41,794 nt of DNA, from NCBI GenBank assembly GCA_003646305.1, contig QNFJ01000001.1:1-41794 (forward strand), in the 5' to 3' direction. Shown here piece by piece: positions 1,326 to 39,732 of the stretch; within the stretch, counting starts at the first letter, position 1; each line of letters opens with the position of its first letter. Below the pieces are notes generated by a model. That model had not been told where the DNA came from, did not search any database, and saw only the letters and a list, made by a program, of their open reading frames with translations. This stretch comes from Gammaproteobacteria bacterium (lineage in GTDB: Bacteria > Pseudomonadota > Gammaproteobacteria > Methylococcales > UBA2780). The position numbers were made by a program, and so were the translations under genes.

Positions 1326-1344
1326 AGCTTGTTTATCTTTTTAA

Positions 1345-1485: not shown

Positions 1486-2640
1486 GTGGATTTTTCTTTA
1501 ACCGAAGAGCAGTTGGCCATTCAGGAAAGCGCCAGACGTTTTGCTGAAGACAAGTTACTTCCCGAGTATCAGAATAATGACAAGAAGCATTGTTTTGATA
1601 AGGTGATGCTGAAAGAGATGGGTGAGCTGGGCTTGATCGGCAGCGAGCTTTCGGAGCGGTATGGTGGTTTAGGTCTAGGTTATGTGACAGCGGGTTTGAT
1701 CACCGAAGAGATTGCCCGAGCCGACTTTAATGTGGCCTATGTGCAGATCCTCGCTGGCCTGAACGGGGGGATTATTGAAAAGTTTGCGGCGCCTCATTTA
1801 GCGGAGGAGTGGATTCCAAAAATCATTAGCGGTGAGGCGCTTGTTGCGATCGCTTTGACGGAACCGAGTGCGGGATCTGATGCGGGAAATCTAAAACTGA
1901 AAGCCAAAAGGAAGGGGGATGTGTTCGTTCTTGATGGTGAGAAAACCTCGATTTCAGCTGCTGCTCAAGCGGATGTGGCGGTTGTTTTTGCTCGAACGGG
2001 TACACAGGAAGAAAAAGCGAGAGGGGTGAGTGCCTTTCTGGTGCCTTTAGATCATCCCAACATTACGCGTACTCATTTTGATGACCTTGGTGAGTCGATT
2101 GTTGGGCGCGGCTCAATCTTTTTCGATGGTGTCGAAGTACCGGCCGAGAATATGCTTGGAGAAGAGGGACTCGGTTTTATTCAGGTGATGCAGGGTTTTG
2201 ATTATAGCCGTGCCTTAATTGGTATTGAGTGTTTGGCGGCAGCGAAGAAATCGGTTGAAGAGGCCTGGGAACAGATTCGCCAACGTGAAGCATTTGGTAA
2301 AAAGATCTCAAAGTTTGAAGGTGCTAGCTTTCCTTTGGCCGAAGCGGAGACTTTTATCGAGGCGGCAAAACTGCTGTGTTACAAAACACTCTGGTTAAGA
2401 GATCAAGGTAAACCTCATACTGCCGAAGCGGCAATGTGCAAATGGTGGGCACCAAAAATTTCATTCGAGATTATTCATAATTGTTTGTTAGCGCATGGCC
2501 ACGGTGGCTACAGTAAAGAGTATCCGATCCAGCAGCGGCTACGTGATGTGCTTGGCTTGCAGATTGGTGATGGCACTTCACAAATCCAGAAGATTGTCAT
2601 TGCCAGAGAGAAAATTGGCCGTGATGGCGTTCCCTATTAA
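1486..2640 (+). CDS. acyl-CoA dehydrogenase family protein
   Basis: 384 aa with a GTG start downstream of TAGGAG. ACAD hallmarks are present (ALTEPSAGSDAG; C-terminal LGLQIGDGTSQIQKIVIAR). Asp sits where MCAD-type enzymes have the catalytic Glu (I-Y-E-G-T versus I-G-D-G-T). Confidence 0.9.
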   Translation: MDFSLTEEQLAIQESARRFAEDKLLPEYQNNDKKHCFDKVMLKEMGELGLIGSELSERYGGLGLGYVTAGLITEEIARADFNVAYVQILAGLNGGIIEKFAAPHLAEEWIPKIISGEALVAIALTEPSAGSDAGNLKLKAKRKGDVFVLDGEKTSISAAAQADVAVVFARTGTQEEKARGVSAFLVPLDHPNITRTHFDDLGESIVGRGSIFFDGVEVPAENMLGEEGLGFIQVMQGFDYSRALIGIECLAAAKKSVEEAWEQIRQREAFGKKISKFEGASFPLAEAETFIEAAKLLCYKTLWLRDQGKPHTAEAAMCKWWAPKISFEIIHNCLLAHGHGGYSKEYPIQQRLRDVLGLQIGDGTSQIQKIVIAREKIGRDGVPY

Positions 2641-2655: not shown

Positions 2656-3447
2656 ATGAGCGATAAAATTGTTATCTCATCGATAGAGGGAAATGTCGGT
2701 CTGATTATCATCAATCGAGCCGACAAATTTAATTGTCTTTCAATGGCCGTGCATCAGGCTTTGCAAGATGCACTACAGGCGCATGAAAGTAATTCGGAAG
2801 TGAGAGCGGTTTTACTTTGTTCGGAAGGTGATCACTTTTGTACCGGAGCAGATCTTGATGAGGTGCATGGCAAGATAGCGGCTAAAGACGATGCTGTGCT
2901 TAGAGAATTTATCGAACTGGGACATAAAACCTGTCGTGATTTTGAACAGACTAGTTTGCCAGTTGTTGGCGCTATTCAGGGGTTCTGTTTAGCGGGTGGG
3001 TTAGAGATATCACTCGGCTGTGATCTGTTGTTTGCTGCGGATGATGCGCTATTCGGTGATCAGCATGCCAACTATGGGTTGATACCTGGGTGGGGAGGAA
3101 GTCAAAGGCTTACTCGAATTATCGGTTTTCGTCGTGCGCTTGATCTGATGTTGTCAGGTCGCCGATTAAAAGCAAAAGAGGCTCAGGAATGGGGAATGGT
3201 TAATTATCTAGCACCTGCTGAATCGCTTAGGGAAGAGGCGCTTAAATATTGTCATCTGCTGGCATCAAAAAGTTCCGGCGGGCTTTCAATGATGAAAGCG
3301 CTCGCCTATCAAGGAAGTGATTTGAGCCTTGATGACGCTTTGCGACTGGAGGTCAACGAGGCGATTAAGGGGCTGCAAAGTGAAGATGTGGGAGAAGGGC
3401 TTGCTGCATTTGGAGAGCGCCGGGAACCTGTCTTCAGATCCCGATAA
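2656..3447 (+). CDS. crotonase-fold protein (enoyl-CoA hydratase/isomerase family) with atypical active site
   Basis: 263 aa. Crotonase motifs are present (FCTGADLDE, GFCLAGGLEISLGCD, GLIPGWGGSQRL). The first catalytic Glu is present (GGLEIS). The second aligns with His (FGDQHANYG versus FGQPEILLG of rat ECH). Confidence 0.85.
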   Translation: MSDKIVISSIEGNVGLIIINRADKFNCLSMAVHQALQDALQAHESNSEVRAVLLCSEGDHFCTGADLDEVHGKIAAKDDAVLREFIELGHKTCRDFEQTSLPVVGAIQGFCLAGGLEISLGCDLLFAADDALFGDQHANYGLIPGWGGSQRLTRIIGFRRALDLMLSGRRLKAKEAQEWGMVNYLAPAESLREEALKYCHLLASKSSGGLSMMKALAYQGSDLSLDDALRLEVNEAIKGLQSEDVGEGLAAFGERREPVFRSR

Positions 3448-3493: not shown

Positions 3494-4276
3494 ATGAACT
3501 ACGAAGATATTACCTATGAAGTAAAAAATGGAGCAGCTTACGTCACCATTAACCGTCCAAAAGTATTTAATGCTTTTAGAGGGATTACCTGTGAAGAGCT
3601 AATTCATGCGCTGACTAAAGCCGCATGGGACAAAAGTGTTGGTGTGATTGTTCTGGCGGGAGCGGGTGATAAAGCATTCTGTACAGGTGGAGATCAAAGT
3701 GCACATGACGGTCAATATGACGGGCGAGGGATTGTTGGCCTGCCTGTTGAAGAGCTGCAAACAATTCTTCGTGATGCGCCTAAACCAGTTATTGCGATGG
3801 TACAAGGTTATGCCATTGGTGGGGGCAATGTGCTGGCGACGATCTGTGATATGACGATCGCCTCAGAAAGAGCCGTTTTTGGCCAGGTGGGCCCTAAAGT
3901 TGGCTCTGTTGATCCGGGTCATGGAACCGCTTATCTTGCCCGCGTGGTTGGGGAGAAAAAAGCACGTGAAATCTGGTACATGTGCCGTAAATATTCTGCA
4001 CAGGAAGCGCTTGAGATGGGGTTGGTTAACAAGGTTGTTCCACATGAAGAGCTTGCTGATGAAGTACAGAAGTGGTGTGATGAAATCATGGATAAAAGCC
4101 CAACAGCACTAGCGATTGCCAAGCGCTCTTTTAATGCCGATACAGAAAGTATCAGAGGAATTTCCGCGTTGGGTATGCAGACATTGCAGCTTTATTACAA
4201 TACAGAAGAGTCTCAGGAAGGGGTTAAGGCGTTTAATGAAAAGCGTAAACCTGATTTCCGCCAGCATGTTAAATAA
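3494..4276 (+). CDS. MenB/BadI-family crotonase, best read as a BadI-like 2-ketocyclohexanecarboxyl-CoA-type (beta-ketoacyl-CoA) hydrolase
   Basis: 260 aa. It carries FCTGGDQSAHDGQYDGRG (the short BadI-like version of the MenB GGDQ loop), GYAIGGGNVLATICD, GPKVGSVDPGHGTAYLARVVG and the C-terminal KAFNEKRKPDF. There are no menaquinone genes nearby, and it follows an ACAD and a crotonase. Confidence 0.72.
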   Translation: MNYEDITYEVKNGAAYVTINRPKVFNAFRGITCEELIHALTKAAWDKSVGVIVLAGAGDKAFCTGGDQSAHDGQYDGRGIVGLPVEELQTILRDAPKPVIAMVQGYAIGGGNVLATICDMTIASERAVFGQVGPKVGSVDPGHGTAYLARVVGEKKAREIWYMCRKYSAQEALEMGLVNKVVPHEELADEVQKWCDEIMDKSPTALAIAKRSFNADTESIRGISALGMQTLQLYYNTEESQEGVKAFNEKRKPDFRQHVK

Positions 4277-4296: not shown

Positions 4297-4884
4297 ATGC
4301 CAGAATCAGGAATTTACGCCATCGATGGGGTTGTCCCAGTTATTCATCCGTCCGCCTTTGTTGACGAAAATGCCACGATTATTGGTGATGTCATTATCGG
4401 ACCAGACTGCTATATCGGTCCTAATGCTTGTCTGAGGGGTGATATGGCCACCATTGAAGTCGGAGCGGGTTCTAATATTCAGGATAACTGCACACTGCAT
4501 TGTATGCCCGGTTTGCCGACAATTATTGGAGAGTGGGGGCACCTTGGTCATGGTGCGGTGGTTCATAGTGCTCGGCTAGCAAAGAATGTCCTGGTTGGTA
4601 TGAATGCTGTTGTGATGGATCAGTCTTTTATCGGTGAGAATAGCGTTGTTGCTGCAATGGCGTTTGTAAAAGTCGGAATGCAAGTGCCAGAAAATACGCT
4701 GGTTGCAGGAACACCTGCACGTATCATTCGGCAGTTGACGGAACAGGAAATTGAAGGAAAACGAGACGGGACACGCTGTTATCACCAGTTAGTGAGCCGT
4801 TGTAAAGACTCTTTAAAGCGGGTCACGCCGCGGACTGAAAAAGAGGTGGGTCGCCCAGAGTTAAAAGTTAAACCGTTAGGATGA
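4297..4884 (+). CDS. gamma-carbonic-anhydrase-like hexapeptide-repeat protein (PaaY/CaiE/YrdA family)
   Basis: 195 aa. Left-handed beta-helix hexapeptide repeats are visible (IIGDVIIGPDCYIGPNACL...). The His triad spacing is retained (H68 in TLH, H85 and H90 in LGHGAVVH). Confidence 0.8.
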   Translation: MPESGIYAIDGVVPVIHPSAFVDENATIIGDVIIGPDCYIGPNACLRGDMATIEVGAGSNIQDNCTLHCMPGLPTIIGEWGHLGHGAVVHSARLAKNVLVGMNAVVMDQSFIGENSVVAAMAFVKVGMQVPENTLVAGTPARIIRQLTEQEIEGKRDGTRCYHQLVSRCKDSLKRVTPRTEKEVGRPELKVKPLG

Positions 4885-4942: not shown

Positions 4943-6139
4943 ATGGATTTAAATTACACTCCAGAAGAAAAAGCATTTCAATTAGAAGTGCGTAGCTTCT
5001 TAAAGGAAAGCTACCCGAAAGAGCTCCAGGATAAAGTTTCAAAAGGGATTGCGCTCAAAAAAGAGGATTATGTCCGTTGGCAGAAAATTCTTGCTAAGCA
5101 GGGTTGGGTTGCACCTGGCTGGCCGGAAAAATTTGGTGGCCCCGGCTGGAGTCCTGTTCAGAAATATATCTTTGATGAGGAGTGTGGTACTGCGAACTGC
5201 TTGAGGACGGTTGCTTTTGGTCTGGTGATGTTGGCGCCTGTCTTAATGGAATTTGGAACAGACGAGCAGCGTGAAAAGTATTTATCAGACATCTATAACA
5301 GTGATGTTTGGTGGTGCCAGGGTTATTCGGAACCCAACTCAGGTTCAGATTTGGCCTCTTTGCAGACGCGGGCAGAAAAGCAGGGTGACCACTATATCGT
5401 CAATGGCTCTAAAACATGGACAACCCATGGTCATTACGCCGATAAGATGTTTGCACTGGTTCGAACCAGCAAAGAAGATCGGAAACAAAAAGGGATCAGC
5501 TTCCTAATGCTCGATATGAAGGCGCCCGGTGTTACAGTCGACCCGATTATTACGGTTGACGGAATGCATGTGGTCAATCAGGTCTTTCTTGATAATGTAA
5601 AAGTACCGGTTGAAAACCTGGTCGGGGTAGAAGGGGAAGGCTGGACGATTGCAAAGTATTTGTTACAGCACGAACGAACTTATATTGCCCAGGTGCCACG
5701 TTCTAAAAAGCAGATTGAGCGCTTGAAGGTATTGGCAGGAAAAGAGCTGCACAATGGTAAATCGTTATTGGAAGATGATCGCTTTCGCGCAAAAATTGCT
5801 GAAATTGAGATTGAGTTATTGGCATTAGAAATGACCAGTTTGCGGATTCTATCCAAAATGTCAGCAGGGCAGCCTCCAGGGTCTGCCTCATCGCTACTTA
5901 AAGTCAAAGGAACAGAAGTACAGCAGGCGATTACGGCTCTACTAATGGAAGCGACAGGTTACTACGGTTTTCCTTACTTCAAAGAGGTCCTTAAAGAGGG
6001 CTGGAATGAAGAGGCAGTAGGGCCTGAAGAGGCAACCTTCCTCGCCCCACATTACTTCGACTGGCGTAAATCTTCTATTTACGGTGGCTCGAATGAAATT
6101 CAGAAAAATATTATGGCGAAAGCTGTATTGGGACTTTAA
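4943..6139 (+). CDS. acyl-CoA dehydrogenase family protein (putative catalytic subunit of a heteromeric pair)
   Basis: 398 aa with YSEPNSGSDLAS and the C-terminal SSIYGGSNEIQKNIMAKAVLGL. The MCAD-type Glu position is Gly, but an IVD/LCAD-type helix-G Glu is present (LLQHERT). Confidence 0.9.
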   Translation: MDLNYTPEEKAFQLEVRSFLKESYPKELQDKVSKGIALKKEDYVRWQKILAKQGWVAPGWPEKFGGPGWSPVQKYIFDEECGTANCLRTVAFGLVMLAPVLMEFGTDEQREKYLSDIYNSDVWWCQGYSEPNSGSDLASLQTRAEKQGDHYIVNGSKTWTTHGHYADKMFALVRTSKEDRKQKGISFLMLDMKAPGVTVDPIITVDGMHVVNQVFLDNVKVPVENLVGVEGEGWTIAKYLLQHERTYIAQVPRSKKQIERLKVLAGKELHNGKSLLEDDRFRAKIAEIEIELLALEMTSLRILSKMSAGQPPGSASSLLKVKGTEVQQAITALLMEATGYYGFPYFKEVLKEGWNEEAVGPEEATFLAPHYFDWRKSSIYGGSNEIQKNIMAKAVLGL

Positions 6140-6151
6140 GGGAGAACGGGA

Positions 6152-7282
6152 ATGAATCTTGAATTCACAGAAGAACAGGTTATGTTGCAGGATGCATTAA
6201 ACAAATACCTTGAAAAAGAATACAGCTTTGAGCAGCGGCAGAAGTTGAGCCGCAATGGCGTCGGTTATAGTGAAGAGAACTGGCAAAATTTTGCCGATAT
6301 GGGATTGTTGGGTGTTCCTTTTGATGAGCAATATGGCGGTTTTGGGTTTGGTGCAACAGGCCTGATCGTCGTCATGGAAGCGATTGGTAAAGGGCTGGTT
6401 GTTGAACCTTACCTTGCCTCTGTTGTTCTCGGTGGTCAGCTTATTCAACAAGCCGGTAGTGAGGTGCAAAAAGAGGCGTTGATTCCGCAATTGATTGCAG
6501 GTGAGTTGAAACTGGCTTTTGCTTATGTCGAGAGAAATTCTCGTTTTAACCTTGCGGATGTGGCCTTTAAAGCAGAAAAAGAGGGAGATGGTTTCCGTTT
6601 AAGCGGCAAAAAATCGGTGGTTTTCAATGCAGAGACAGCCGATAAAATTATCGTTTCAGCTCGAACAGCAGGAGATCAGACCAGTAAAGAAGGGATTTCT
6701 CTTTTTATTGTTGATAAAGGGGCAGTCGGTCTCTCTAGCAGAGACTATGAAACGGTTGATGGTTTGCGCGCATCTGAACTCGATTTTGATGGCGTGATTG
6801 TAGGGGCTGATGCATTAATTGGCTCATTAAATGAGGCCTATCCTGTTATTGAAAGTGTGATTGATTTTGCATCAGCCGCTATTTGTGCGGAGAGCGTTGG
6901 GGTGATCACGCAGCTTCGTGAGAAAACAGTTGAGTACCTGAAAACCAGAAAGCAGTTTGGTCAGCCTATTGGTGCTTTTCAGGTCCTACAGCACCGCACG
7001 GTTGATATGTTTATGGTAGAAGAGCAGATGCGTTCTTTAGCCTATTTAGCCGCAATTCGTGTGACTGATGGAACAGCGGAAGAGCGCCTCAAGAGTGTTT
7101 CTGCAGCCAAGGTCTATCTGGGTGATGCGCGCCCAATCGTCGGTGAACAATCTGCACAGTTACATGGTGGTATTGGGGTTACGGATGAACTGGATGTGGC
7201 CCATTACGTTAAGCGTTTAACGATGCTGAATGTGCTCTTTGGTGATCGCGATCACCATATGCAGCGCTTTTGCCAAAGCTGA
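6152..7282 (+). CDS. acyl-CoA dehydrogenase-like protein lacking a recognisable catalytic base (putative non-catalytic partner subunit)
   Basis: 376 aa, starting 12 nt after the preceding ACAD. The ACAD fold is recognisable throughout. The helix-G position reads VIDFASAAI (no Glu) and the C-terminal position reads LFGDRDHH (no Glu). Confidence 0.85.
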   Translation: MNLEFTEEQVMLQDALNKYLEKEYSFEQRQKLSRNGVGYSEENWQNFADMGLLGVPFDEQYGGFGFGATGLIVVMEAIGKGLVVEPYLASVVLGGQLIQQAGSEVQKEALIPQLIAGELKLAFAYVERNSRFNLADVAFKAEKEGDGFRLSGKKSVVFNAETADKIIVSARTAGDQTSKEGISLFIVDKGAVGLSSRDYETVDGLRASELDFDGVIVGADALIGSLNEAYPVIESVIDFASAAICAESVGVITQLREKTVEYLKTRKQFGQPIGAFQVLQHRTVDMFMVEEQMRSLAYLAAIRVTDGTAEERLKSVSAAKVYLGDARPIVGEQSAQLHGGIGVTDELDVAHYVKRLTMLNVLFGDRDHHMQRFCQS

Positions 7283-7294: not shown

Positions 7295-8317
7295 ATGTCT
7301 AAAACGGAAAAATTAAGTTATCCGTTTGCGGAAAAGCCATCATTTGGTGGTTTGCTCGAAGTTTCGGAAGGACTGTTCTGGCTGCGGGTACCTATTCCGT
7401 TTGCGCTTGACCACATCAATCTCTGGTTATTGCGTGATGGTGATGGTTGGACAATCATTGATACGGGCTTTTTTAGCGCAGAAGTCGCGACAATCTGGGA
7501 ACGGCTGCTAGAAGAATTTTGTGCAGGCGCACCGATTAAAAAAATTGTGGTGACGCACTTTCATCCCGACCACGTTGGTATGGCGAGCTGGTTGGTTGAG
7601 CGAACCGGAGCAGAGCTGTGGATGAGCGAGCGTGAATTCCTGACCGTTCATCGTGTATGTCAGCCCTATTCTGAACGTGAGATTACGGTGAGGGCTATCT
7701 TCTTCGAGCGTTTTGGGCTAAATGAAAAGCAGCTTGCCAGTGTCGTTAACGCGAGAAGTAGTGATGTTGAGGGGCTTCCGGAAGCCCCGGTCTCATACCG
7801 CCGATTGGTCGGTGGACAAACGTTATCGATAAATGGTGAGAACTGGAACTTGTTCAGTTTCGCAGGCCATAGTCCTGAGCATATTTGTCTGCACAATGCG
7901 GAGCGTAATTTGCTGATCTCGGGGGACCAGGTGTTGCCATCAATCTCTCCGAATATTAGTGTCACCTTTTACGAGCCACAGGCAAATCCGTTAGCGGAGT
8001 ATCTGAACAGTTTATCGAGGCTATCCGAGCTGAATGAAGAGACACTGGTGCTACCGTCACATGGTTCTGTATTCCAGGGTCTTCATCGGAGGATTGATCA
8101 GCTTGAGGCCGGACATCAAAAGCAGCTGGACAGGCTTTTGGAGTTTTGTAGGCAACCGCGTGATGGTAAAGAGGCGCTGGAAGCGATGTTTGGTAACCGC
8201 TTAAGTGCATTCAATTTGAGTCTGGGGGTTGGTGAGGCCCAGGCACACCTGAATTATTTAGTGGCCAAGCGTGAGCTAAAACAAAATGATGAGTTTATTC
8301 CACATTACCAGCGATAG
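7295..8317 (+). CDS. MBL-fold metallo-hydrolase
   Basis: 340 aa with the HxHxDH motif in VVTHFHPDHVG and downstream GHSPEH and PSHG. Confidence 0.85.
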   Translation: MSKTEKLSYPFAEKPSFGGLLEVSEGLFWLRVPIPFALDHINLWLLRDGDGWTIIDTGFFSAEVATIWERLLEEFCAGAPIKKIVVTHFHPDHVGMASWLVERTGAELWMSEREFLTVHRVCQPYSEREITVRAIFFERFGLNEKQLASVVNARSSDVEGLPEAPVSYRRLVGGQTLSINGENWNLFSFAGHSPEHICLHNAERNLLISGDQVLPSISPNISVTFYEPQANPLAEYLNSLSRLSELNEETLVLPSHGSVFQGLHRRIDQLEAGHQKQLDRLLEFCRQPRDGKEALEAMFGNRLSAFNLSLGVGEAQAHLNYLVAKRELKQNDEFIPHYQR

Positions 8318-8383: not shown

Positions 8384-8806
8384 ATGAACGATACAGTGAC
8401 ATACAAAAGCCTGATTCTAGGTGATGATTTTCTTGATCCACCGCCCTCTTTTGAGGTGACCAATGAGGTGGTTGATAAATATATTCGTGCAACAAACGAT
8501 GCAACCCAGGAGCTTGGAGAGCCTAATAGTAGAGGCCAGCGAATTGCACCTCCTATGCTGGCTGCGGTTTATGTGATTGACGCGCTGCGTACCAAGGTCG
8601 GGCCGCCGGGTGGCGTTCATGCCAAGCAGCAATTTAAATTTCATCGCCCCGCATGCGTGGGTGAAACACTTTATACCTCGGCAAAGATTGTCAAACTCTA
8701 TCAGAAAAAAGAGCGGAATTACGTTGAGATGACGACTGAAACGCTTAACCAGGATGACGACTTAGTGACGACAGGGCTGATCACTCGGATATGGGGGAAA
8801 GAATAA
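8384..8806 (+). CDS. hotdog-fold protein, MaoC N-terminal-half type (no hydratase-2 catalytic motif)
   Basis: 140 aa. Its size and pattern fit a hotdog fold. It has no [ST]GDxNPxH motif. Its stop TAA (8804-8806) overlaps the next ATG (TAATG). Confidence 0.72.
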   Translation: MNDTVTYKSLILGDDFLDPPPSFEVTNEVVDKYIRATNDATQELGEPNSRGQRIAPPMLAAVYVIDALRTKVGPPGGVHAKQQFKFHRPACVGETLYTSAKIVKLYQKKERNYVEMTTETLNQDDDLVTTGLITRIWGKE

Positions 8807-9237
8807 TGACGATTAGCGAGGAATTACAAAGCTATAAAAACCTTTCTGTAGGAGATCGCCTGCCTGAAATTAAGGTACTGGTTGACCAGAATATGGTCGA
8901 TGCTTACGCGGATGCATCGGGTGATACCAATCCATTACACATTGATCCTGAATTTGCCAAAACAACCTTCTTCGGGCGAACGATTGCGCACGGACTTTTA
9001 ACTCTGGCATTTGTATCGCAAGTGCTATCTGAATGGAACTGGCAGGGATGGGCTTATGGTGGCGAATTAAGCGTTGCTTTTTTAGGTCCTGTATACCCTG
9101 GAGATGAGGTTTCAGTCAGTGGAGAAATAGATTTAATTGAGCAGCGCGAAGAGGGTGTTTTTGCGCGCTGTAATTTGGCTTGTTATTGCGGGGAGAGAGC
9201 CGTTGTTAAGGGAACAGCAACCTGCAAAGTTGGTTAA
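8806..9237 (+). CDS. MaoC-family (R)-specific enoyl-CoA hydratase subunit
   Basis: It carries the canonical hydratase-2 motif YADASGDTNPLHIDPEFA. I prefer the ATG at 8806 (MTISEE..., TAATG coupling, GGGGAAAG upstream) over the track start at 8791. Confidence 0.85.
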   Translation: MTISEELQSYKNLSVGDRLPEIKVLVDQNMVDAYADASGDTNPLHIDPEFAKTTFFGRTIAHGLLTLAFVSQVLSEWNWQGWAYGGELSVAFLGPVYPGDEVSVSGEIDLIEQREEGVFARCNLACYCGERAVVKGTATCKVG

Positions 9238-9248: not shown

Positions 9249-10652
9249 ATGAGTTACCGTAAAGATGGGGCTTTAGAGAAAAAAGGCGACAGCTATTACC
9301 ACCAGATTGAGTGTGCTTCAGAAGATGAAATCATCAAGATTCAGGAAGAGAAATTACAGGCGCAGATGGCCTATTTGTCTAAAAACTCAAAGCTCTATCA
9401 ACAGAAGTTTGAGAAGGCAGGTATTCGTTTTGATGAGATCAAAACACTAAAGGATTTAGCCAAAGTCCCTTTTACCGTTAAACAGGATCTTAGGGACAGT
9501 CTTCAAGCTGCTCCACCATTTGGTCTTCACCAAACAGCACCGCTTTCTGAGATTGTACAGATGCAGGCCTCGTCAGGAACCACCGGTAGTCCCGCTTATG
9601 TCGCTCTGACTGAAAACGATATTGAGATGTGGAATGAACTGAGTGCGCGAGGATTTTATGCCTGCGGTGTTAACCCAGGCGACTTTGTTTTACATGGCTT
9701 TTCCATGAGTAAAGGCTTTGTTGGCGGTATCCCTTGTATGCAGGCGATTCAATATATGGGGGCAATTGATGTTCCTGTGGGCGCTGATGGTGGGGTTGAT
9801 CGGCTGTTACGTGCCTGTGCGGATATTAAACCGCGAGTTATTATTGGCGCGCCTAATTTTCTACTGCATATTGCCTCGATGGCGCCCGATATTCTTGGTA
9901 AACGTGCCGATGAACTGGGCGTAGAAAGATTAGTTGTTGGTGGTGAACCAGGTGGTGGTATTCCTGCGATTCGCGAATCACTGGAAGAGAAATGGGGCGC
10001 GAAAGTCTGTGAAATGATGGGAGGGACTGATCTCGGCGTCATCTATTGGGCAGAATGTGATGAGCAAGATGGCATGCATATGATCTGTCAGGATCACATT
10101 ATTGTCGAATTGATTGACCCGGAAACAGAGCAGGTGATTCCTTTTGAGAAAGGCGTTACTGGCGAGCTGATTTATACCGCGATTGGCCGCGAGGCTTCAC
10201 CCGTTGTTCGTTTTAAAAGTGGCGATCACATTGTGGTGACCGATACGGCGTGTAGTTGTGGCCGGACAGGCCCTAAAATACGCTGCTTTGGGCGAACAGA
10301 TGATATGTTGATTGTCCGCGGCATCAATGTCTTTCCATCGGCAATCCAGGATCTTATTTTACAGCTACAACCTGACACCAACGGCGTGATGCGTGTCTGG
10401 GCCGATTTTGAAGGCCATACCACGCAAGCAAATCTGAAAGTATTGGTTGAGCGCGGCATTGATCGGTCGAAAGAGCAGGATCAGGAGCTTATCAGCCATG
10501 TGGAGCAAACCATTCGCAACGCCTTATCGTTCAAGGCGAAAGTGATTGTTGTCGATGCAAATAGTTTTGAAAAACCGGGTGTTGCAAAAGTAGCGCTAAC
10601 GCTTCGTGAGCAACCCGGCTTTCTCACTCTTGATGATGAGGGTGCTCAGTAA
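9249..10652 (+). CDS. PaaK-like adenylate-forming enzyme (phenylacetate-CoA ligase / coenzyme F390 synthetase family)
   Basis: 467 aa with the P-loop-like QASSGTTGSPAYV. The overall pattern is PaaK-family rather than FadD-type. Confidence 0.8.
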   Translation: MSYRKDGALEKKGDSYYHQIECASEDEIIKIQEEKLQAQMAYLSKNSKLYQQKFEKAGIRFDEIKTLKDLAKVPFTVKQDLRDSLQAAPPFGLHQTAPLSEIVQMQASSGTTGSPAYVALTENDIEMWNELSARGFYACGVNPGDFVLHGFSMSKGFVGGIPCMQAIQYMGAIDVPVGADGGVDRLLRACADIKPRVIIGAPNFLLHIASMAPDILGKRADELGVERLVVGGEPGGGIPAIRESLEEKWGAKVCEMMGGTDLGVIYWAECDEQDGMHMICQDHIIVELIDPETEQVIPFEKGVTGELIYTAIGREASPVVRFKSGDHIVVTDTACSCGRTGPKIRCFGRTDDMLIVRGINVFPSAIQDLILQLQPDTNGVMRVWADFEGHTTQANLKVLVERGIDRSKEQDQELISHVEQTIRNALSFKAKVIVVDANSFEKPGVAKVALTLREQPGFLTLDDEGAQ

Positions 10653-12262
10653 TGTCAATTATAAAGTCGACTGTACATAATCAGTCTGAAGAGTTTATCG
10701 CTAATCGAAATCGTTATCTTGAACGGATCGAAGAACTACAGGAACACCGGCAGCGCGCCCATTTAGGTGGGCCAGAGAAAGCACGGAAACGTCATATAGA
10801 ACACCGCGAACAGATATTGCCGCGTGATCGTATTCGGTTGCTGATTGACCCGGGTTCTCCTTTTTTTGAACTGGGTGAACTTGCGGGTGATGGTCTGCCC
10901 GAAGGGACTCAGGTCGGTGCAAGTGTTATTACCGGCGTCGGCCTCATTAACAGCCGTCAATGTATGATTATTGCCAATGATGCCACCGTAAAAGGCGGTA
11001 CTTATTTTCCAATGACCTGTAAAAAACATGTTCGGGCGCAGACGTTTGCGATACAGCATCGGCTACCCTGCATCACTTTAGTTCAAAGTGGTGGTGCATT
11101 TTTGCCAGAGCAGGAAGGTATTTTTCCTGATGAGGGTATGTTCGGAAGCATCTTTGTTAACCAGATCGAAATGTCCGCTCAGGGTATTCCACAGATTTCC
11201 GTGGTAATGGGCTCATCAACAGCAGGTGGTGCCTATATACCTGCGTTGTGTGATGAGATTGTCATCATTAAAGGGAAAGGTTTTATGTATCTGGGTGGCC
11301 CCCAACTGGTTGAAGCGGCGACAGGTGAGAAGGTCGAACATGAAGCGCTAGGCGGTGCAGAAATGCATTGTCGGGATAGTGGTGTTACCGATCATCTAGC
11401 AGAAGATGACGCACATGGTTTGAGTATGGTACGCGATATTGTGCGAAATCTGGGTAACCTACCCGAACAACGCTGGGATGTGGCTAAATCGGTTCCACCA
11501 CTATATCCGGTGGAAGAGATTTACGGCATTGTTAATCAGGATACGAAAATTCCGACCGCTAACCGACAAATCTTGGCTCGCTTAATTGATGGTAGTGACT
11601 TTGATGAATTCAAGGCCAATTATGGCGATACGCTGATGTGTGGCTTTGCCAAAATACATGGTTTTGAAATCGGTATTTTAGCTAATGATGGCGTGATGTT
11701 TAGTGAGTCTGCTAAAAAAGGGGCGCACTTTATTAATCTTTGCTGCCAGCGCGATATTCCACTGTTATTTGTGGCCGATGTTCCCGGTTTTATGGTGGGT
11801 GAACATGCCGAGCGGGGTGGTATCGCAAAAGATGGAGCAAAGTTCATCACCGCCATGTGTTCTGCAAAAGTACCTAAATATACCTTAATCACGGGAGGCT
11901 CTTACGGTGCCGGTTATTTAGCCATGTGTGGTCGCCCGTTTAAACCGAATGCCATGTTAGCCTGGCCATCGGGTCGTGCTGGCATTATGGGGCCGGAGCA
12001 GGTTGCCAATACGCTTGCAACGGTACGCGAAGATATCCTCAAACGAGAAGGAAAAAGTTGGACGGAAGAAGAGCGGGAAGAATTTAAAGCGCCACATCGG
12101 AAACGATTTGAGGATTCTGAAGGTGCTTATAACTTTGCCTCCAAGTTGTGGTATGACGCGGTGATTGATCCAACAGAAACACGCGAAGTGCTGGCACTTT
12201 TACTTGATCTGGCAGGACGTTCGCCCAAAGTGGAAACTAAATTTGGTGTATTCAGACAATGA
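10652..12262 (+). CDS. acyl-CoA carboxylase carboxyltransferase (beta) subunit, methylcrotonyl-/geranyl-CoA carboxylase type
   Basis: 536 aa. The layout is typical of MccB/AtuC (RIEELQEHRQRAHLGGPEKARKRH..., ANDATVKGGTYFPMT, GSSTAGGAYIPA, GSYGAGYLAMCG). Its start overlaps the previous stop (TAATG). Confidence 0.9.
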   Translation: MSIIKSTVHNQSEEFIANRNRYLERIEELQEHRQRAHLGGPEKARKRHIEHREQILPRDRIRLLIDPGSPFFELGELAGDGLPEGTQVGASVITGVGLINSRQCMIIANDATVKGGTYFPMTCKKHVRAQTFAIQHRLPCITLVQSGGAFLPEQEGIFPDEGMFGSIFVNQIEMSAQGIPQISVVMGSSTAGGAYIPALCDEIVIIKGKGFMYLGGPQLVEAATGEKVEHEALGGAEMHCRDSGVTDHLAEDDAHGLSMVRDIVRNLGNLPEQRWDVAKSVPPLYPVEEIYGIVNQDTKIPTANRQILARLIDGSDFDEFKANYGDTLMCGFAKIHGFEIGILANDGVMFSESAKKGAHFINLCCQRDIPLLFVADVPGFMVGEHAERGGIAKDGAKFITAMCSAKVPKYTLITGGSYGAGYLAMCGRPFKPNAMLAWPSGRAGIMGPEQVANTLATVREDILKREGKSWTEEEREEFKAPHRKRFEDSEGAYNFASKLWYDAVIDPTETREVLALLLDLAGRSPKVETKFGVFRQ

Positions 12263-14247
12263 TTAAACGAATTCTTATCGCAAACCGCGGCGAAATCGCC
12301 TGTCGAATTACACGAACCTGCCGTAAATTGGGGATTGATGCCGTTGGTGTCTATTCAACGGCAGATAGCCAGGGCCGCCATGTTAGAGAGATTGGTCATT
12401 CTGTTGCTATCGGTGGTGCCAGTGCAGCAGATAGTTACCTCAATATAGATAAAGTCATTGCAGCAGCTAAAGCGACTAACTGTGATGCCATTCATCCAGG
12501 TTATGGTTTTTTATCAGAAAACCCCGACTTTGCCGAGGCGGTTGAAGGTGCTGGGCTTATTTTTATTGGTCCCAGAGCGGATAGCTTACGCCGTTTTGGT
12601 GATAAGTCTGCCGCTAAAAAAGAGGCTATTAATGCCGATGTGCCGGTTATCCCGGGCAGTGATGGAAAGCTTTCCGATCCAGTGGAGATTGCCAAGATTG
12701 TTAAAAGCATGGAGCTTCCAGTGATGCTGAAAGCCGCCGCGGGTGGTGGTGGGAAGGGGATGCGGATTATCAGTGATCTGCCAAGTCTGGAATCCGATAT
12801 CAGCAGTGCCATGAGCGAAGCATTGCGTTCTTTTTCCGATGAGGCGCTACTGATTGAAAAATGTATCTACAATGCGCGTCATGTAGAGGTGCAGATTGCA
12901 GGTGATGGTGAAGGCAATGTCGTTCACCTTTTTGAACGAGAATGCTCTTTACAGCGTCGCCACCAAAAAGTTGTTGAAGAGGCGCCTGCTATTTTCCTCC
13001 GGCTAGAGCAGCGTGAAAAATTGTTGGAAGCTGCTTGCCGACTTGGTAAGCAGATTAATTTTAGAGGACTGGGCACTGTTGAGTTTCTTGTGCTGGGTGA
13101 CGATTACTATTTTCTGGAAGTAAACCCGCGGCTTCAGGTGGAGCACCCCGTTACTGAGAGCATAACTGGTCTGGATCTGGTCGAACTACAGATTCGCATT
13201 GCACAGGGAAGCGGTTTTGGCTTTCGCCAAGAAGAGGTCAGTGCTTCAGGTCACGCCATTGAGGTGCGCCTTTATGCCGAATCACCAGAGCAGAACTTTA
13301 TGCCAGCGACGGGAACAATTGAGCTTGTGAAATTCCCAGACGAGCACCTGCGCGTTGAATCCGGGGTCGATAGCGGTGACGAGATAAGTGCCTATTACGA
13401 CCCAATGGTTGCCAAACTGATTGCTACTGGAGAGAATCGAAATCAGGCGCTGGAACGTCTTCAAAAAGGAGTTGATGAAACCATTCTTTTTGGGGTTGAT
13501 AATAACCGTAATTTTCTTCAGCAACTGCTTCGCCATAACGAGGTTGTCGAGGACAAGATTGACACCGGCACGCTGGATCGCTGGTTAGCCGATTATGCCG
13601 ATGGAAAGGGTTCTCTTGAAGCAGAAAAACAGGCAGCTATTGCGGCTATTCTATGGCTAAACCAGCACCGAAAGAGTGGCTCATTAAATCCATGGGAAGG
13701 CGCCGATATCTTTAGTTATTGGGCATTAAGATCACCGAATGACAAACCTATTTATACCTTTAGCCTGATCGAAAATGAAGATGAGTGGAAGATCGCTTTT
13801 CTGAATATCGATGAGCAAGGGCTTGTTGCGCTGATGGTAAATGACCAGCGGATTGAATTGCGGCTGAAAGCTCAGGGCGATGACAGCTGGATGGCTGAAT
13901 TTCCGGAGGCACATATCCCTGTGACGGCTATTGCCACAACTGAACAGCTCTATATCCACGCACTTTCACAACAAAGTAGCTACCGAGTGGAGCAGGTTGT
14001 CCGCGATAAACAAGGGGAAGCGGCCGGTGCGAATAGTGTCATGGCACCGATGATGGGTGAGATTATCAAGGTGATTATTAAGGAAGGGGATAGCGTAGAA
14101 GAGGGTGATCTTCTGATTGTAATGGAGTCAATGAAAATGCAATTACAAATTGAAGCCGTTAAAGCGGGTACGGTAACTAACGTTCTTTGCAAGGCAGGCG
14201 ACAATGTTGCACGCGGTGAAGTTGTGGTAGAAGTCGATGCAGAATAA
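12259..14247 (+). CDS. acyl-CoA carboxylase biotin carboxylase + BCCP (alpha) subunit
   Basis: 662 aa. It has an ATP-grasp biotin carboxylase domain (ILIANRGEIACRI, KAAAGGGGKGMR, EVNPRLQVEHPVTE). The C-terminal biotinyl domain has the motif VMESMKMQ, with the Lys codon at 14134-14136. The start overlaps the beta subunit stop (ATGA). Confidence 0.92.
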   Translation: MIKRILIANRGEIACRITRTCRKLGIDAVGVYSTADSQGRHVREIGHSVAIGGASAADSYLNIDKVIAAAKATNCDAIHPGYGFLSENPDFAEAVEGAGLIFIGPRADSLRRFGDKSAAKKEAINADVPVIPGSDGKLSDPVEIAKIVKSMELPVMLKAAAGGGGKGMRIISDLPSLESDISSAMSEALRSFSDEALLIEKCIYNARHVEVQIAGDGEGNVVHLFERECSLQRRHQKVVEEAPAIFLRLEQREKLLEAACRLGKQINFRGLGTVEFLVLGDDYYFLEVNPRLQVEHPVTESITGLDLVELQIRIAQGSGFGFRQEEVSASGHAIEVRLYAESPEQNFMPATGTIELVKFPDEHLRVESGVDSGDEISAYYDPMVAKLIATGENRNQALERLQKGVDETILFGVDNNRNFLQQLLRHNEVVEDKIDTGTLDRWLADYADGKGSLEAEKQAAIAAILWLNQHRKSGSLNPWEGADIFSYWALRSPNDKPIYTFSLIENEDEWKIAFLNIDEQGLVALMVNDQRIELRLKAQGDDSWMAEFPEAHIPVTAIATTEQLYIHALSQQSSYRVEQVVRDKQGEAAGANSVMAPMMGEIIKVIIKEGDSVEEGDLLIVMESMKMQLQIEAVKAGTVTNVLCKAGDNVARGEVVVEVDAE

Positions 14248-15418
14248 ACGCTCAATTCGAGGCAAAGTTGCGATTGTTGGTGTTGGGCAATCACCTTCAG
14301 GACGGGTGCCCGGCAGAAGCCCGTTAGACTTGACTGCCGATGCAACGCTTAAAGCACTGGCCGACGCCGGTATGGATAAAAGTGAAATTGACGGGGTCTT
14401 GACGGGTAATGCCTTCGCCTCATCCTTCCACCGTTTTAGTGTTGCATTGAGTGAATACCTGAACATTCAACCTTCATTCTCTAATACCTTGCAGGTCTCG
14501 GGAGCCACTGCGGGAGCCGCCGTTAATATTGCCGCAGCAGCGATTAACGGTGGGCTTGCAGATACGGTGCTGGTCGCCTGTGGTGATAGCCTGTTAACTG
14601 GGATGACACCAGATATGGCGATTAGAGCGATGACCGAAAGCCGTGATCAACAATATGAAATGCCTTTTGGAATTCCTGTGGCCAATACGTTTGCGATGAC
14701 GGCTCAGCGGCATATGAAAGAGTACGGCACCACCTCTGAACAGTTAGCACAAGTGGCCGTTACCTTTCGTGAGCATGCTCGACGTACACCGGGTGCGCAA
14801 AAGACGGACTCGATTACGGTTGAGGATGTGTTAAATTCCAAAATGGTGACGACGCCGTATCACAAACTGGACTGTTCTCTTATTTCTGATGGTGCTGTTG
14901 CGCTAATTTTGACCTCGGCGGAAAAGGCGCATGAATATACTCAGGAGCCAATTTATATTCTGGGTGGTGGCGAGTATTACAGCCATGAGCATATTTTTTT
15001 GATGCCAGAATTGACCCAGACGGGTGCGGTTCAGGCAGCTAAAAAGGCCTATGAGATGGCGGGTGTGACGGCAAAAGATATTGATGTTGCGGGAATTTAT
15101 GATTGTTTTACCGGAACGGTTTTGATGATGCTCGAAGATCTCGGGTTTTGTAAAAAAGGCGAGTCAGGCCCATTCGTTGAGGCGGGAGAAATCACCTACG
15201 GAGGGGCTATTCCGACTAATACTCACGGTGGAATGCTCTCTTATGCGCATCCGGGTATTCCGGCGGCATGGTTTCATTTTGCGGAGGTGGTTAGACAGCT
15301 TCGCAATAGCTGCGGTGAAAGACAGGTTGCCAGTGCAGAGCTTGGACTAGTCCATACCTTAGGTGCTGGTTTTTCAACCCAGGCAACGACGATATTAGGA
15401 ACGGGGAGCACACTGTGA
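14237..15418 (+). CDS. thiolase-fold (SCP-x/Ltp-type) protein apparently lacking the nucleophilic Cys; candidate aldolase subunit
   Basis: 393 aa with an SCP-x-type thiolase pattern (VAIVGVGQS..., NTHGGMLSYAHPG). Gly occupies the nucleophile position (GATAGAAVNIAAAAINGG versus CATGSTALFMARQLIQGG). Confidence 0.85.
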   Translation: MQNKRSIRGKVAIVGVGQSPSGRVPGRSPLDLTADATLKALADAGMDKSEIDGVLTGNAFASSFHRFSVALSEYLNIQPSFSNTLQVSGATAGAAVNIAAAAINGGLADTVLVACGDSLLTGMTPDMAIRAMTESRDQQYEMPFGIPVANTFAMTAQRHMKEYGTTSEQLAQVAVTFREHARRTPGAQKTDSITVEDVLNSKMVTTPYHKLDCSLISDGAVALILTSAEKAHEYTQEPIYILGGGEYYSHEHIFLMPELTQTGAVQAAKKAYEMAGVTAKDIDVAGIYDCFTGTVLMMLEDLGFCKKGESGPFVEAGEITYGGAIPTNTHGGMLSYAHPGIPAAWFHFAEVVRQLRNSCGERQVASAELGLVHTLGAGFSTQATTILGTGSTL

Positions 15419-15855
15419 GTGAGCAAAAGGTTGGAGTAGAAGAGGCGCTAAAAAAACCATTGCCCACGCCTGATGGTGATAGCCAGCCAATGTGGGATGG
15501 TTTTAAAGAAGGTAAATTATTGTTGCAGCATTGCGGTGATTGCGGACATGTTCAATATTACCAACAAGGTATTTGTCGCAACTGCCAATCGCCTAACCTG
15601 CAGCATCAGAAAGCAAGTGGGCGTGGAGTGATTCATTCATATAGTGTCGTTCATCGTGCGCCCGGCCCTGCGTTTAGAGATGATGTTCCTTATGCAGTGT
15701 TATTAGTCGAACTGGAAGAGGGGCCCAGAATGATTAGCCGTTTGGTTGGGCAGGATTTTGACTCACTGGATTTTGATCTGCCGGTCAGGCTGGAAACCAT
15801 TAAGGTGAGTGATGAACTTTTTCTCCCTTATTTCGCATTGAACGAGTGCAATTAA
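15415..15855 (+). CDS. DUF35 OB-fold / zinc-ribbon protein (thiolase-fold partner)
   Basis: 146 aa with a GTG start overlapping the previous stop (GTGA). It has a C-x2-C-x10-C-x2-C ribbon (CGDCGHVQYYQQGICRNC) followed by an OB-fold-like segment. Confidence 0.85.
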   Translation: MSEQKVGVEEALKKPLPTPDGDSQPMWDGFKEGKLLLQHCGDCGHVQYYQQGICRNCQSPNLQHQKASGRGVIHSYSVVHRAPGPAFRDDVPYAVLLVELEEGPRMISRLVGQDFDSLDFDLPVRLETIKVSDELFLPYFALNECN

Positions 15856-33776: not shown

Positions 33777-34928
33777 TTATAAAACAGCCTCGGTACCTAA
33801 TATAGAGGTCACCTGGCTCGAGAGAACGCCACCGTTGCCGTGTACTAGAGCCACTTCGGCATCGCTAACCTGACGATCACCACAGCCACCGCGTAGTTGG
33901 CGTACCGCTTCGATCAGAATAAAAATGCCGTACATGCCTGGGTGAACACAAGACAGGCCGCCGCCATTAGTATTAACCGGCAAGCTACCACCCGGTGCGA
34001 TATTGCCATTAGAGACAAAAGCGCCACCTTCACCTTTTGCACAAAAGCCAAGATCTTCCAGAAACAAGATGGTATTGATCGTGAAGGCGTCATATAACTC
34101 AACCACATCAACATCATCTTTAGTTAAGCCGGCCATATCGAAAGCGCGTTTGCCAGAGTCGAGTGCAGCGGTTGTTGTGAGGTCAGGCATTTGAGTGATC
34201 TGACGATGCCAATGAGCCGTGCCAGTGCCCATTAAATAAACAGGCTTATTAGGGAAGTCTTTAGCGCGTTCACTAGAGACCATAATAACCGCGCCACCGC
34301 CATCGGTTACTAAACAGCAATCGAGGAGTGATAATGGATCGCTCACCATTCTTGCGCTCATAACCTCTTCACGGGTTAAATCGGCACGAGAAAAAGCTTC
34401 TGGGTTTAATTGCGCCCATTTTCTGGCAGCAACAGCTACATCGGCCATGTTTTCACGGGTTGTACCATATTGGTGCATATGGCGTGCTGCAGCAAATGCG
34501 TAGGAGCTAATTGGGTAGCGAGGTTTGTAGGGTGTTTCATACGTCTGCTGCTCTGACATGGTAGCGAGTTTGCCACCCGCAGTGCGCTGGTTACTGCCGT
34601 AGCAGATTAGTGCGACCTCACACAGTCCATTCTTGATCGCCATCGCAGCATTTAATGTATGGGCGACAAACGATGATCCACCCACCATGCTGCCATCAGA
34701 AAAGCGCGGTTTGATACCAAGGTACTCAGCTGTACTGAGTGTTGGCATAAAGTGGTATGAAGAACCGGTAAACAGTCCATCAATATCGGAAAGTTTTAAT
34801 CCAGCATCGTCCAGTGCGTTATGGGTGGCTTCTGCCAAAATATCGAGCGGCATTCTGCCGTGTGCTTCGCCACATCCGGCTAGTCCAACGCCAACAATGG
34901 CGGATGATCCTCTTAATTCATGTGACAT
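33777..34928 (-). CDS. thiolase-fold (SCP-x/Ltp-type) protein apparently lacking the nucleophilic Cys; candidate aldolase subunit
   Basis: I place the start at the ATG at 34928 (MSHELRGSSAIVGVGLAG, with AAGAGG upstream). The track's longer ORF, reaching 35045, would overlap the DUF35 gene. Gly is at the nucleophile position (GSSFVAHTLNAAMAIKNG). It also carries NTNGGGLSCVHPG. Confidence 0.85.
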   Translation of the reverse strand: MSHELRGSSAIVGVGLAGCGEAHGRMPLDILAEATHNALDDAGLKLSDIDGLFTGSSYHFMPTLSTAEYLGIKPRFSDGSMVGGSSFVAHTLNAAMAIKNGLCEVALICYGSNQRTAGGKLATMSEQQTYETPYKPRYPISSYAFAAARHMHQYGTTRENMADVAVAARKWAQLNPEAFSRADLTREEVMSARMVSDPLSLLDCCLVTDGGGAVIMVSSERAKDFPNKPVYLMGTGTAHWHRQITQMPDLTTTAALDSGKRAFDMAGLTKDDVDVVELYDAFTINTILFLEDLGFCAKGEGGAFVSNGNIAPGGSLPVNTNGGGLSCVHPGMYGIFILIEAVRQLRGGCGDRQVSDAEVALVHGNGGVLSSQVTSILGTEAVL

Positions 34929-39730: not shown

Positions 39731-39732
39731 TT

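Follow-up and report, generated by a model that had tools for sequence, protein, structure and literature searches.

Two overlapping genes in a 41,794-nucleotide stretch of gammaproteobacterial DNA (contig QNFJ01000001.1 of assembly GCA_003646305.1; the whole stretch is hereafter called the window) likely encode a heteromeric, thiolase-fold retro-aldolase, i.e. a β-hydroxyacyl-CoA aldol-lyase of the Sal type, which would carry out the lyase step of a carboxylation-dependent bypass for β-branched acyl-CoAs. We put the probability of this reading at about 0.55. Its two parts differ in strength: aldolase chemistry is probable, while a carboxylated, hydrated intermediate as the substrate is a more tentative proposal, to which we give somewhat less than an even chance. 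The pair, termed copy 1 to distinguish it from a second pair (copy 2) in the same window, consists of a thiolase-fold protein and a free-standing DUF35 protein. The original prediction, made from the sequence alone, described an Ltp2-like retro-aldolase that has lost both catalytic cysteines. Its two open reading frames (ORFs) are present at the expected coordinates and are joined by a GTGA overlap, and the peptides it quoted are found in the copy 1 protein from residues 89 (GATAGAAVNIAAAAINGG), 328 (NTHGGMLSYAHPG) and 373 (HTLGAGFS). To our knowledge, only two members of this Cys-less kind of thiolase-like aldolase, Sal and Ltp2, have been characterized, and both act on steroids.

The copy 1 protein matches the Pfam families Thiolase_C_1 (2.5e-54) and Thiolase_N (2.9e-9). 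In a pairwise HMMER alignment of near full length, Gly89 of its VSGATA segment lies opposite the nucleophilic Cys (AACASG) of the archaeal DUF35-associated thiolase 6ESQ, and the same pairing was reproduced independently in a MAFFT alignment of ∼150 sequences. The substitution of Gly for Cys, which had first been read from an ungapped alignment, is thus upheld by gapped ones, and no Cys was placed at the nucleophile site by these alignments. Gly89 is identical in all 16 orthologues compared (70–96% identity; from alpha-, beta- and gammaproteobacteria). A more distant set, comprising ∼140 full-length sequences from the 150 representatives listed (50%-identity clusters; 34–50% identical to the copy 1 protein), shows Gly at this position, with Ser or Ala in rare cases and Cys in none. 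As the loss of the Cys extends over the whole clade, it reflects neither chance nor sequencing error. The nucleophilic Cys found in thiolases at the N terminus of the active-site helix is therefore absent here; the Cys residues of the protein are located elsewhere (115, 213, 290, 305 and 359). With Gly89 in place of the acyl-accepting Cys, the covalent acyl-enzyme required for thiolysis could not be formed, and covalent thiolysis by the copy 1 protein is, from its sequence, very unlikely.

The thiolase fold, the retention of Cys290, His330 and the NTHGG loop, and the name “acetyl-CoA acetyltransferase” that NCBIfam attaches to relatives of the protein could also be explained by a genuine 3-ketoacyl-CoA thiolase using another nucleophile (Cys290, Cys213 or Cys115). 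We regard this as extremely improbable, since a Cys at the nucleophile site occurs nowhere in the clade and the protein scores below the cutoff of every NCBIfam thiolase model. Furthermore, CtSal from Comamonas testosteroni, which has the same architecture, is incapable of thiolytic cleavage owing to the Gly at its nucleophile site, according to its authors (PMC12329534).

The second catalytic site defines the type of active site more closely. CtSal combines the Gly at the nucleophile position with a Y302-D-C304-Y motif, and each of the substitutions Y302F, C304A, C304S and C304H abolished its activity; in the mechanism proposed for it, the base that acts on the β-hydroxyl is the Tyr, and the acetyl-CoA enolate is protonated by the Cys as the acid (PMC12329534). 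The copy 1 protein displays this Sal-type pattern (Gly together with Y-D-C-[YF]): its Gly89 aligns with Gly89 of CtSal, and it has YDCF at the position of the CtSal motif. The archaeal thiolase 6ESQ carries HDCF at the same place; thus, the Cys is kept and the His is replaced by Tyr in the copy 1 protein. The protein is a member of the SCP2-thiolase branch, in which the acid/base Cys is part of the HDCF motif and not of the classical CxG loop. The string HTLGAGFS, previously taken as the site of the second Cys, does correspond to the CxG position of classical thiolases, but the acid/base Cys of the SCP2 type sits in YDCF (residues 288–291). Only one of the two catalytic cysteines, rather than both, has therefore been lost. 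The 16 orthologues show no variation at Tyr288, Asp289, Cys290, Phe291, His330 or His338. Among the distant representatives, Tyr288 is nearly universal, and the third position of the motif varies (Cys, Ala, Ser, Pro or Asn).

The catalytic pair of Ltp2 is different, with Tyr294 (base) in a YDHF motif, Tyr344 as the acid, and His296 in the oxyanion hole (PMC12329534). The positions of His296 and Tyr344 are occupied by Cys290 and His338 in the copy 1 protein. The combination of YDCF with His338, and not of YDHF with Tyr344, indicates an active site of the Sal/SLP type rather than the Ltp2 type. An Ltp2-type aldolase, with both catalytic cysteines lost and a Tyr/Tyr acid-base pair, would agree with the Gly at the nucleophile site, with a Tyr equivalent to Tyr294 of Ltp2 and with a DUF35 of the C4 type as in ChsH2, but it is highly improbable given the YDCF motif, His338 and the invariance of Cys290 among the orthologues. 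What is retained from the original prediction is the kind of enzyme, an aldolase of thiolase fold that lacks the nucleophilic Cys and is partnered by DUF35; the Ltp2-like details are not.

Comparisons with solved structures place the copy 1 protein near, and not within, the characterized aldolase clades. The best matches by sequence are 4U4E (1e-84), CtSal (9MYR; 2.8e-63) and TcLtp2 (6OK1; 1e-51), followed by archaeal thiolases. Pairwise identities are 44% to 4U4E, 44% to copy 2, 36% to CtSal, 34% to TcLtp2 and 32% to 6ESQ. A Foldseek search returned 4U4E, 6OK1 and 9MYR as the top matches; its query was an AlphaFold2 model built from a 17-sequence alignment, with a mean predicted local distance difference test score (pLDDT) of 66, a predicted template modeling score of 0.71 and active-site loops below a pLDDT of 50, and the model was used for Foldseek and not for geometry. 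Apart from 4U4E, the nearest solved relatives by both sequence and fold are therefore the two characterized aldolase-DUF35 complexes, CtSal-Shy and TcLtp2-ChsH2. The higher identity to 4U4E and copy 2 than to CtSal and TcLtp2 places the copy 1 protein in a third, uncharacterized group beside the Sal and Ltp2 clades; five of the ∼140 distant representatives are nearest to CtSal. Orthologues that are 86–96% identical are found in Cycloclasticus genomes, and others that are 69–74% identical in Bradyrhizobiaceae, Xanthobacteraceae, Burkholderiales and other Proteobacteria. For sequences spread over alpha-, beta- and gammaproteobacteria, this degree of conservation is unusually high. A plasmid search returned paralogues only, with identities of at most 44%.

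The closest structure, 4U4E, is a putative thiolase from Sphaerobacter thermophilus and belongs, like copy 2, to the NCBIfam PRK06158 group. It shares the nucleophile-site Gly and a Tyr-Asp-x-Phe motif with the copy 1 protein; however, the motif in this group is YDSF or YDAF and contains no Cys. The SCP2-thiolase-like protein of Trypanosoma brucei (TbSLP; 5AB4–5AB7), a structural neighbor in Foldseek, also lacks the nucleophilic Cys and has the identical YDCF motif, but it comes from a eukaryote, is not known to associate with a DUF35 protein and is only ∼24% identical. The true DUF35-associated thiolases, such as the archaeal acetoacetyl-CoA thiolase/HMGCS/DUF35 complex (6ESQ) and the benzoylsuccinyl-CoA thiolase BbsAB (7PXP), resemble the copy 1 pair in belonging to the SCP2-type branch and in having a free-standing DUF35; in contrast, 6ESQ keeps the nucleophilic Cys and HDCF, and BbsB is a working thiolase.

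The partner protein matches the Pfam families zf-ChsH2 (2.3e-11) and OB_ChsH2_C (the former DUF35; 5.6e-20), and its matches in the PDB are ChsH2(DUF35) (2.8e-19), the DUF35 domain of Shy (2.1e-18) and archaeal DUF35 (2.7e-13). The four Cys residues of its zinc ribbon are invariant in 79 sequences (the copy 1 partner and 78 orthologues), in agreement with the earlier description of a free-standing DUF35 with a 4-Cys zinc ribbon. A Shine-Dalgarno-like GGGGAG lies just 5′ of its GTG start, and a weak terminator-like hairpin is present 3′ of the gene. For the wider gene context, orthologous loci (80 in total, 52 of them with full 10-kb flanks) were drawn from a collection of species-representative genomes. 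In 78 of these 80 loci, the thiolase-like gene is followed by the DUF35 gene. A DUF35 of the C4 type is needed for a soluble, active enzyme in Ltp2-type aldolases, and the partnership predicted here from the genes alone would be of the same kind. The zinc site of the Shy DUF35 is Cys3His1, as opposed to the canonical C4 (PMC12329534).

DUF35 proteins do serve as scaffolds, and the copy 1 protein might accordingly be viewed as an inert pseudoenzyme that organizes a hydratase, ligase or carboxylase through DUF35, comparable to the archaeal thiolase/HMG-CoA (3-hydroxy-3-methylglutaryl-CoA) synthase complex. We find this extremely doubtful: the level of identity maintained across three proteobacterial classes and the invariant active-site motifs point to a constrained catalytic site.

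As a Sal-type aldolase, the 393-residue subunit would retain the thiolase fold and the pocket for the CoA thioester. Tyr288 would take the proton from the β-hydroxyl, the Cα–Cβ bond would be broken and Cys290 would protonate the resulting acetyl-CoA enolate, as inferred from Sal. If it behaves like its counterparts in Ltp2-ChsH2(DUF35) and Sal-Shy(DUF35), the DUF35 protein would bind the catalytic dimer and help to form the substrate cleft. The resemblance to the proteobacterial CtSal-CtShy(DUF35) complex extends over the thiolase fold, the nucleophile-site Gly, the Tyr/Cys dyad in a Y-D-C-aromatic motif and the DUF35 partner. The copy 1 pair differs from that complex in its non-steroid context and in the attached carboxylase; in addition, the DUF35 of Sal is fused to the MaoC hydratase Shy, whereas that of copy 1 is free-standing. 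With TcLtp2/MtLtp2-ChsH2(DUF35), which acts on the C3 side chain of cholesterol, the pair shares the absence of the nucleophilic Cys, a C4-type DUF35, an operon logic like that of igr (two acyl-CoA dehydrogenases, two MaoC subunits and an aldolase) and, by analogy, retro-aldol release of an acyl-CoA from a tertiary β-hydroxyacyl-CoA. Unlike the copy 1 pair, Ltp2 is actinobacterial and steroid-acting, and its DUF35 is fused to ChsH2.

The substrate is suggested by the operon. The genes for the carboxyltransferase, the biotin carboxylase, the thiolase-like protein and DUF35 overlap successively, and the thiolase-like/DUF35 pair is the last element of a run that begins with a CoA ligase; the pair is thus translationally coupled to the carboxylase. 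Against structures in the PDB, the carboxyltransferase scored 617 bits with AccD1 of M. tuberculosis, 596 with the β-subunit of P. aeruginosa methylcrotonyl-CoA carboxylase (MCC) and 425 with that of geranyl-CoA carboxylase (GCC), compared to ∼200–250 for β-subunits of the propionyl-CoA carboxylase (PCC) types. As it is far nearer to the MCC/GCC β-subunits than to those of PCC and acetyl-CoA carboxylase, we assign the enzyme to the MCC/GCC (γ-carboxylating) type. The small pocket of MCC and the large pocket of GCC are distinguished by a selectivity residue, Phe191/Gly162 (PMC4673880). At the candidate pocket segment, the carboxyltransferase of the window has IFVNQ, linked orthologues have IFYNQ or IMYNQ, and the P. 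aeruginosa MCC has IFFNQ, but the numbering of PMC4673880 could not be mapped onto the 3U9R chain. No HMGL-like domain was found in the five annotated carboxylase-bearing contexts (the window and four other loci).

The AliB- and BadI-type genes upstream score above their NCBIfam equivalog cutoffs, pointing toward a Rhodopseudomonas-type pathway for alicyclic acids in a Cycloclasticus; a BadH-like short-chain dehydrogenase/reductase (SDR) was not found in the window. Together with the PimC/PimD-like genes, they suggest a substituted alicyclic or branched carboxylic acid as the carbon source. The context of the operon is thus the breakdown of alicyclic or branched acyl-CoAs with an MCC-type carboxylase, and not steroid side-chain degradation. 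From this gene context, we propose a sequence of five steps. An acyl-CoA dehydrogenase would form a 3-branched 2-enoyl-CoA, the MCC-type carboxylase would act on its γ carbon, and a hydratase would then produce a 3-hydroxy-3-(carboxymethyl)acyl-CoA. Its 3-hydroxyl is tertiary and hence not oxidizable by any dehydrogenase. The aldolase would cleave this intermediate into acetyl-CoA and a β-keto acid, in the manner of HMG-CoA lyase, and the adjacent CoA ligase would re-activate the keto acid. Methylpimeloyl-CoA, arising after ring opening, can be offered as an example of a source, although this substrate is a guess.

The same order of reactions has been proposed for C24-branched sterol side chains in Rhodococcus, namely desaturation, carboxylation at C28, hydration, aldol cleavage by the thiolase-like Ltp3-Ltp4 and re-thioesterification (PMC6678751). 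Ltp3-Ltp4 differs from the copy 1 pair in being a heteromer of two thiolase-like proteins that acts on a steroid, and it is likened to the pair by pathway logic and not by sequence. A broader possibility, which we advance with more reserve, is that the whole clade represents a thiolase-fold, DUF35-dependent analogue of HMG-CoA lyase that completes a carboxylation-dependent bypass for β-branched acyl-CoAs. The sources of these acyl-CoAs may include methyl-substituted cyclohexanecarboxylates, naphthenic acids of the cyclohexylacetate type and isoprenoid acids. Such an enzyme may be a non-orthologous replacement for the lyase step of the Liu/Atu pathways and may correspond, in Proteobacteria, to the step proposed for Ltp3-Ltp4. 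The proposed reaction, and its place after an MCC/GCC-type carboxylase and a hydratase, would correspond to those of HMG-CoA lyase (LiuE) and 3-hydroxy-3-isohexenylglutaryl-CoA lyase; the fold of HMG-CoA lyase, a TIM barrel, is unrelated, and the functional analogy is drawn from gene context only.

Conservation of the neighborhood was assessed in the 52 loci with full flanks. Within 10 kb, DUF35 is present in 51, a carboxyltransferase (at least 50% identical) in 36, a biotin carboxylase in 37, an AliB-like dehydrogenase in 25 and one specific enoyl-CoA hydratase in 27. The genes of Bradyrhizobiaceae and Xanthobacteraceae are arranged in the order ligase, thiolase-like protein, DUF35, acyl-CoA dehydrogenase, carboxyltransferase and biotin carboxylase, after which an SDR and/or an enoyl-CoA hydratase usually comes. 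An acetoacetyl-CoA-synthetase-like ligase and a dienoyl-CoA-reductase-like enzyme are encoded nearby. Of three such loci inspected, two show a 4-nt overlap between the ligase and thiolase-like genes. In the other lineages examined, too, a CoA ligase gene immediately precedes the thiolase-like gene. The MaoC pair and the PaaK-like ligase, by comparison, occur only in Cycloclasticus and its closest relatives.

Several observations weigh against a Sal-type lyase coupled to carboxylation. In CtSal, the side chain of Gln161 is proposed to contribute to the oxyanion hole, and Gln347 and Gln352 to support the thiolate of the catalytic Cys (PMC12329534). These residues are replaced by Ala149, Met333 and His338 in the copy 1 protein (Asn150, beside Ala149, is conserved). 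The motif Cys is not conserved in the wider clade, with YDAF in copy 2 and YDSF in 4U4E, which implies either that the Cys is not a universal acid or that the clade harbors more than one chemistry. The identities to CtSal and TcLtp2 are low, and the structural model is poor in the active-site loops. We know of no enzyme activity in this clade and of no function assigned to 4U4E. Finally, ∼30% of the orthologous loci, mostly betaproteobacterial, have no carboxylase within 10 kb, and the pair in these loci follows arrays of CoA-ligase genes. In two such loci from Burkholderiales/Extensimonas (L086 and L087; 73% identical), the pair ends an array of 5–6 AMP-dependent ligase genes and no dehydrogenase, hydratase or carboxylase is nearby, an arrangement for which the carboxylation-bypass model does not account.

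The loci that lack a nearby carboxylase favor a retro-aldolase that is independent of it. Following the pattern of the mycobacterial igr operon, such an enzyme would cleave what the PimCD-like dehydrogenase and the MaoC hydratase directly produce, and the carboxylase would belong to a different step. It could, for example, remove acetyl or propionyl units from a ring side chain, converting (1-hydroxycyclohexyl)acetyl-CoA into cyclohexanone and acetyl-CoA. The Cycloclasticus operon does contain an igr-like set (two acyl-CoA dehydrogenases, two MaoC subunits, the thiolase-like gene and DUF35), and both characterized relatives act directly on hydratase products. However, the MaoC and PimCD-like pairs are particular to Cycloclasticus (4–5 of the 52 loci), whereas the carboxylase is the conserved neighbor and is translationally coupled here. 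The MaoC pair is also closer to generic PhaJ/HadAB hydratases than to ChsH1/ChsH2. On balance, we consider a carboxylase-independent role unlikely.

The proximity of the carboxylase is also compatible with an acyl-CoA decarboxylase, or another non-aldolase, that acts on the carboxylated product. The models for this are Cys-less ketosynthase-like decarboxylases and TbSLP, which has the same YDCF motif and for which a weak malonyl-CoA decarboxylase activity was reported; yet the kcat of TbSLP is just 0.005 per s, and CtSal has no such activity (PMC12329534). Moreover, an operon that carboxylates an intermediate and then decarboxylates it would run a futile cycle, except where isomerization was the purpose, and its hydratases would be left without a next step. 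A decarboxylase thus appears quite improbable, and a Sal-type aldolase acting after the carboxylase remains our preferred assignment.

The part of the proposal that is most interesting and most open to testing is this link with the carboxylase; the kind of enzyme is already known, and the clade is uncharacterized and widely conserved. Here, a Tyr/Cys site of the Sal type occurs in a marine hydrocarbon degrader, within a non-steroid operon. We searched the literature on DUF35 with carboxylases, on alternatives to isohexenylglutaryl-CoA lyase and on the catabolic genes for cyclohexylacetate, and found no earlier description of the pairing. If the proposal is correct, bacteria whose clusters lack HMG-CoA lyase would use this enzyme as the lyase when they remove β-branches by way of carboxylation, and its gene would be a marker for the breakdown of branched or alicyclic (naphthenic-type) acids. 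A widespread mis-annotation would also be corrected: many Cys-less thiolase-like genes are annotated as “acetyl-CoA acetyltransferase” or “thiolase”, and all of the ∼140 representatives inspected lack the nucleophilic Cys. If the proposed role is wrong, the pair would still be an ordinary new member of the aldolase-DUF35 kind.

Table 1. Copy 1 pair, its catalytic and metal-binding motifs, and other features of the window
Feature	Position	Strand	Remarks
Thiolase-fold subunit (copy 1)	14237..15418	+	ATG start, 393 aa; without nucleophilic Cys; predicted catalytic subunit of a β-hydroxyacyl-CoA retro-aldolase
Gly89 codon	14501..14503	+	Position of the thiolase nucleophile Cys
Y288-D289-C290-F291 motif	15098..15109	+	Equivalent, by alignment, of CtSal Y302-D-C304-Y (catalytic base and acid)
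N328-T-H330-G-G loop and His338	15218..15250	+	His338 at the position of TcLtp2 Tyr344 and CtSal Gln352
Free-standing DUF35 protein (copy 1)	15415..15855	+	GTG start, 146 aa; rubredoxin-like zinc ribbon and OB fold; predicted obligate partner of the thiolase-fold subunit
Zinc ribbon C40-x2-C43-x10-C54-x2-C57	15532..15585	+	Canonical C4 type, not Cys3His1 as in Shy
Biotin carboxylase and biotin carboxyl carrier protein (α) subunit	12259..14247	+	ATGA overlap with carboxyltransferase; 11-nt overlap with thiolase-like gene
Carboxyltransferase (β) subunit, MCC/GCC-type biotin carboxylase	10652..12262	+	Pfam Carboxyl_trans 9.6e-130
PaaK-like acyl-CoA ligase	9249..10652	+	Stop shares one base with the carboxyltransferase start
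Two overlapping MaoC/hot-dog genes	8384..8806 and 8791..9237	+	HadAB-like two-subunit (R)-specific enoyl-CoA hydratase
Metallo-β-lactamase (MBL)-fold hydrolase with B_lactamase-like_C domain	7295..8317	+	Between acyl-CoA dehydrogenase pair and hydratase genes
PimC/PimD-like acyl-CoA dehydrogenase pair	4943..7282	+	Upstream block
PaaY-like protein	4297..4884	+	Upstream block
BadI-type ring hydrolase	3494..4276	+	TIGR03210, 476 bits, cutoff 468 (2-ketocyclohexanecarboxyl-CoA hydrolase)
Enoyl-CoA hydratase	2656..3447	+	Upstream block
AliB-type acyl-CoA dehydrogenase	1486..2640	+	TIGR03207, 583 bits, cutoff 575 (cyclohexanecarboxyl-CoA dehydrogenase)
MmgE/PrpD-family gene	3..1340	-	Left edge of the window
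Copy 2 thiolase-like gene	33777..34928	-	4-nt gap after DUF35; 44% identical to copy 1
Copy 2 DUF35	34933..35331	-	First gene of the pair, order reversed relative to copy 1
Sigma-54 activator with GAF sensor domain	37205..39130		
Hydantoinase-B/oxoprolinase-family gene (start)	40644..41794		Runs past the end of the window

Two minus-strand ORFs (13980–14345 and 14143–14466) were taken as spurious, as they overlap two well-supported plus-strand genes; no separate search was made with them. The MaoC pair of the operon was considered as a ChsH1/ChsH2-like hydratase, and this was rejected as its best matches in the PDB are generic PhaJ/HadB hydratases. The MBL-fold hydrolase, which might be a thioesterase, is 53–56% identical within Cycloclasticus, compared to 70–90% for its neighbors.

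Other Cycloclasticus loci differ from the window downstream of the copy 1 pair. In one of them (L006), the DUF35 gene is directly followed by an ORF (11603–12085) that is 75% identical to the 158-residue ORF at 21897–22373 of the window. In another (L088, 11646–16710), a citrate-synthase-like gene comes next, and the copy 2 cluster after it. From this order, the block at 15962–21869 of the window, which encodes a resistance-nodulation-division (RND) efflux pump, a FabK/nitronate monooxygenase-like protein and an enoyl-CoA hydratase, looks inserted or rearranged. The 158-residue ORF of the window has no match in Pfam or NCBIfam; it is conserved, and in another genome of Cycloclasticus it shows synteny with the aldolase pair. 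L006 also contains (12339–21001) a second MCC/GCC-like carboxylase located by a true, Cys-containing acetyl-CoA acetyltransferase, acyl-CoA dehydrogenases and an enoyl-CoA hydratase related to γ-carboxygeranoyl-CoA hydratase, indicating that Cycloclasticus has two carboxylase-based modules for branched chains.

The copy 2 protein has Gly at the nucleophile position and, with its YDAF motif, no Cys at either catalytic position, as in 4U4E; it scores above the NCBIfam cutoff of PRK06158. Its gene probably starts at 34928 (MSHELRG) and not at the GTG at 35045. Three family-III CoA-transferases, acyl-CoA dehydrogenases, a MaoC hydratase and an old-yellow-enzyme gene are its neighbors. A full-length old-yellow-enzyme gene lies at 35471–36613. 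A paralogous ORF near the right end of the window (39724–40278 and 40217–40579) matches positions 87–237 only of the Oxidored_FMN profile and is probably a truncated or frameshifted old-yellow-enzyme gene; a 78-residue Oxidored_FMN fragment is also present in L088.

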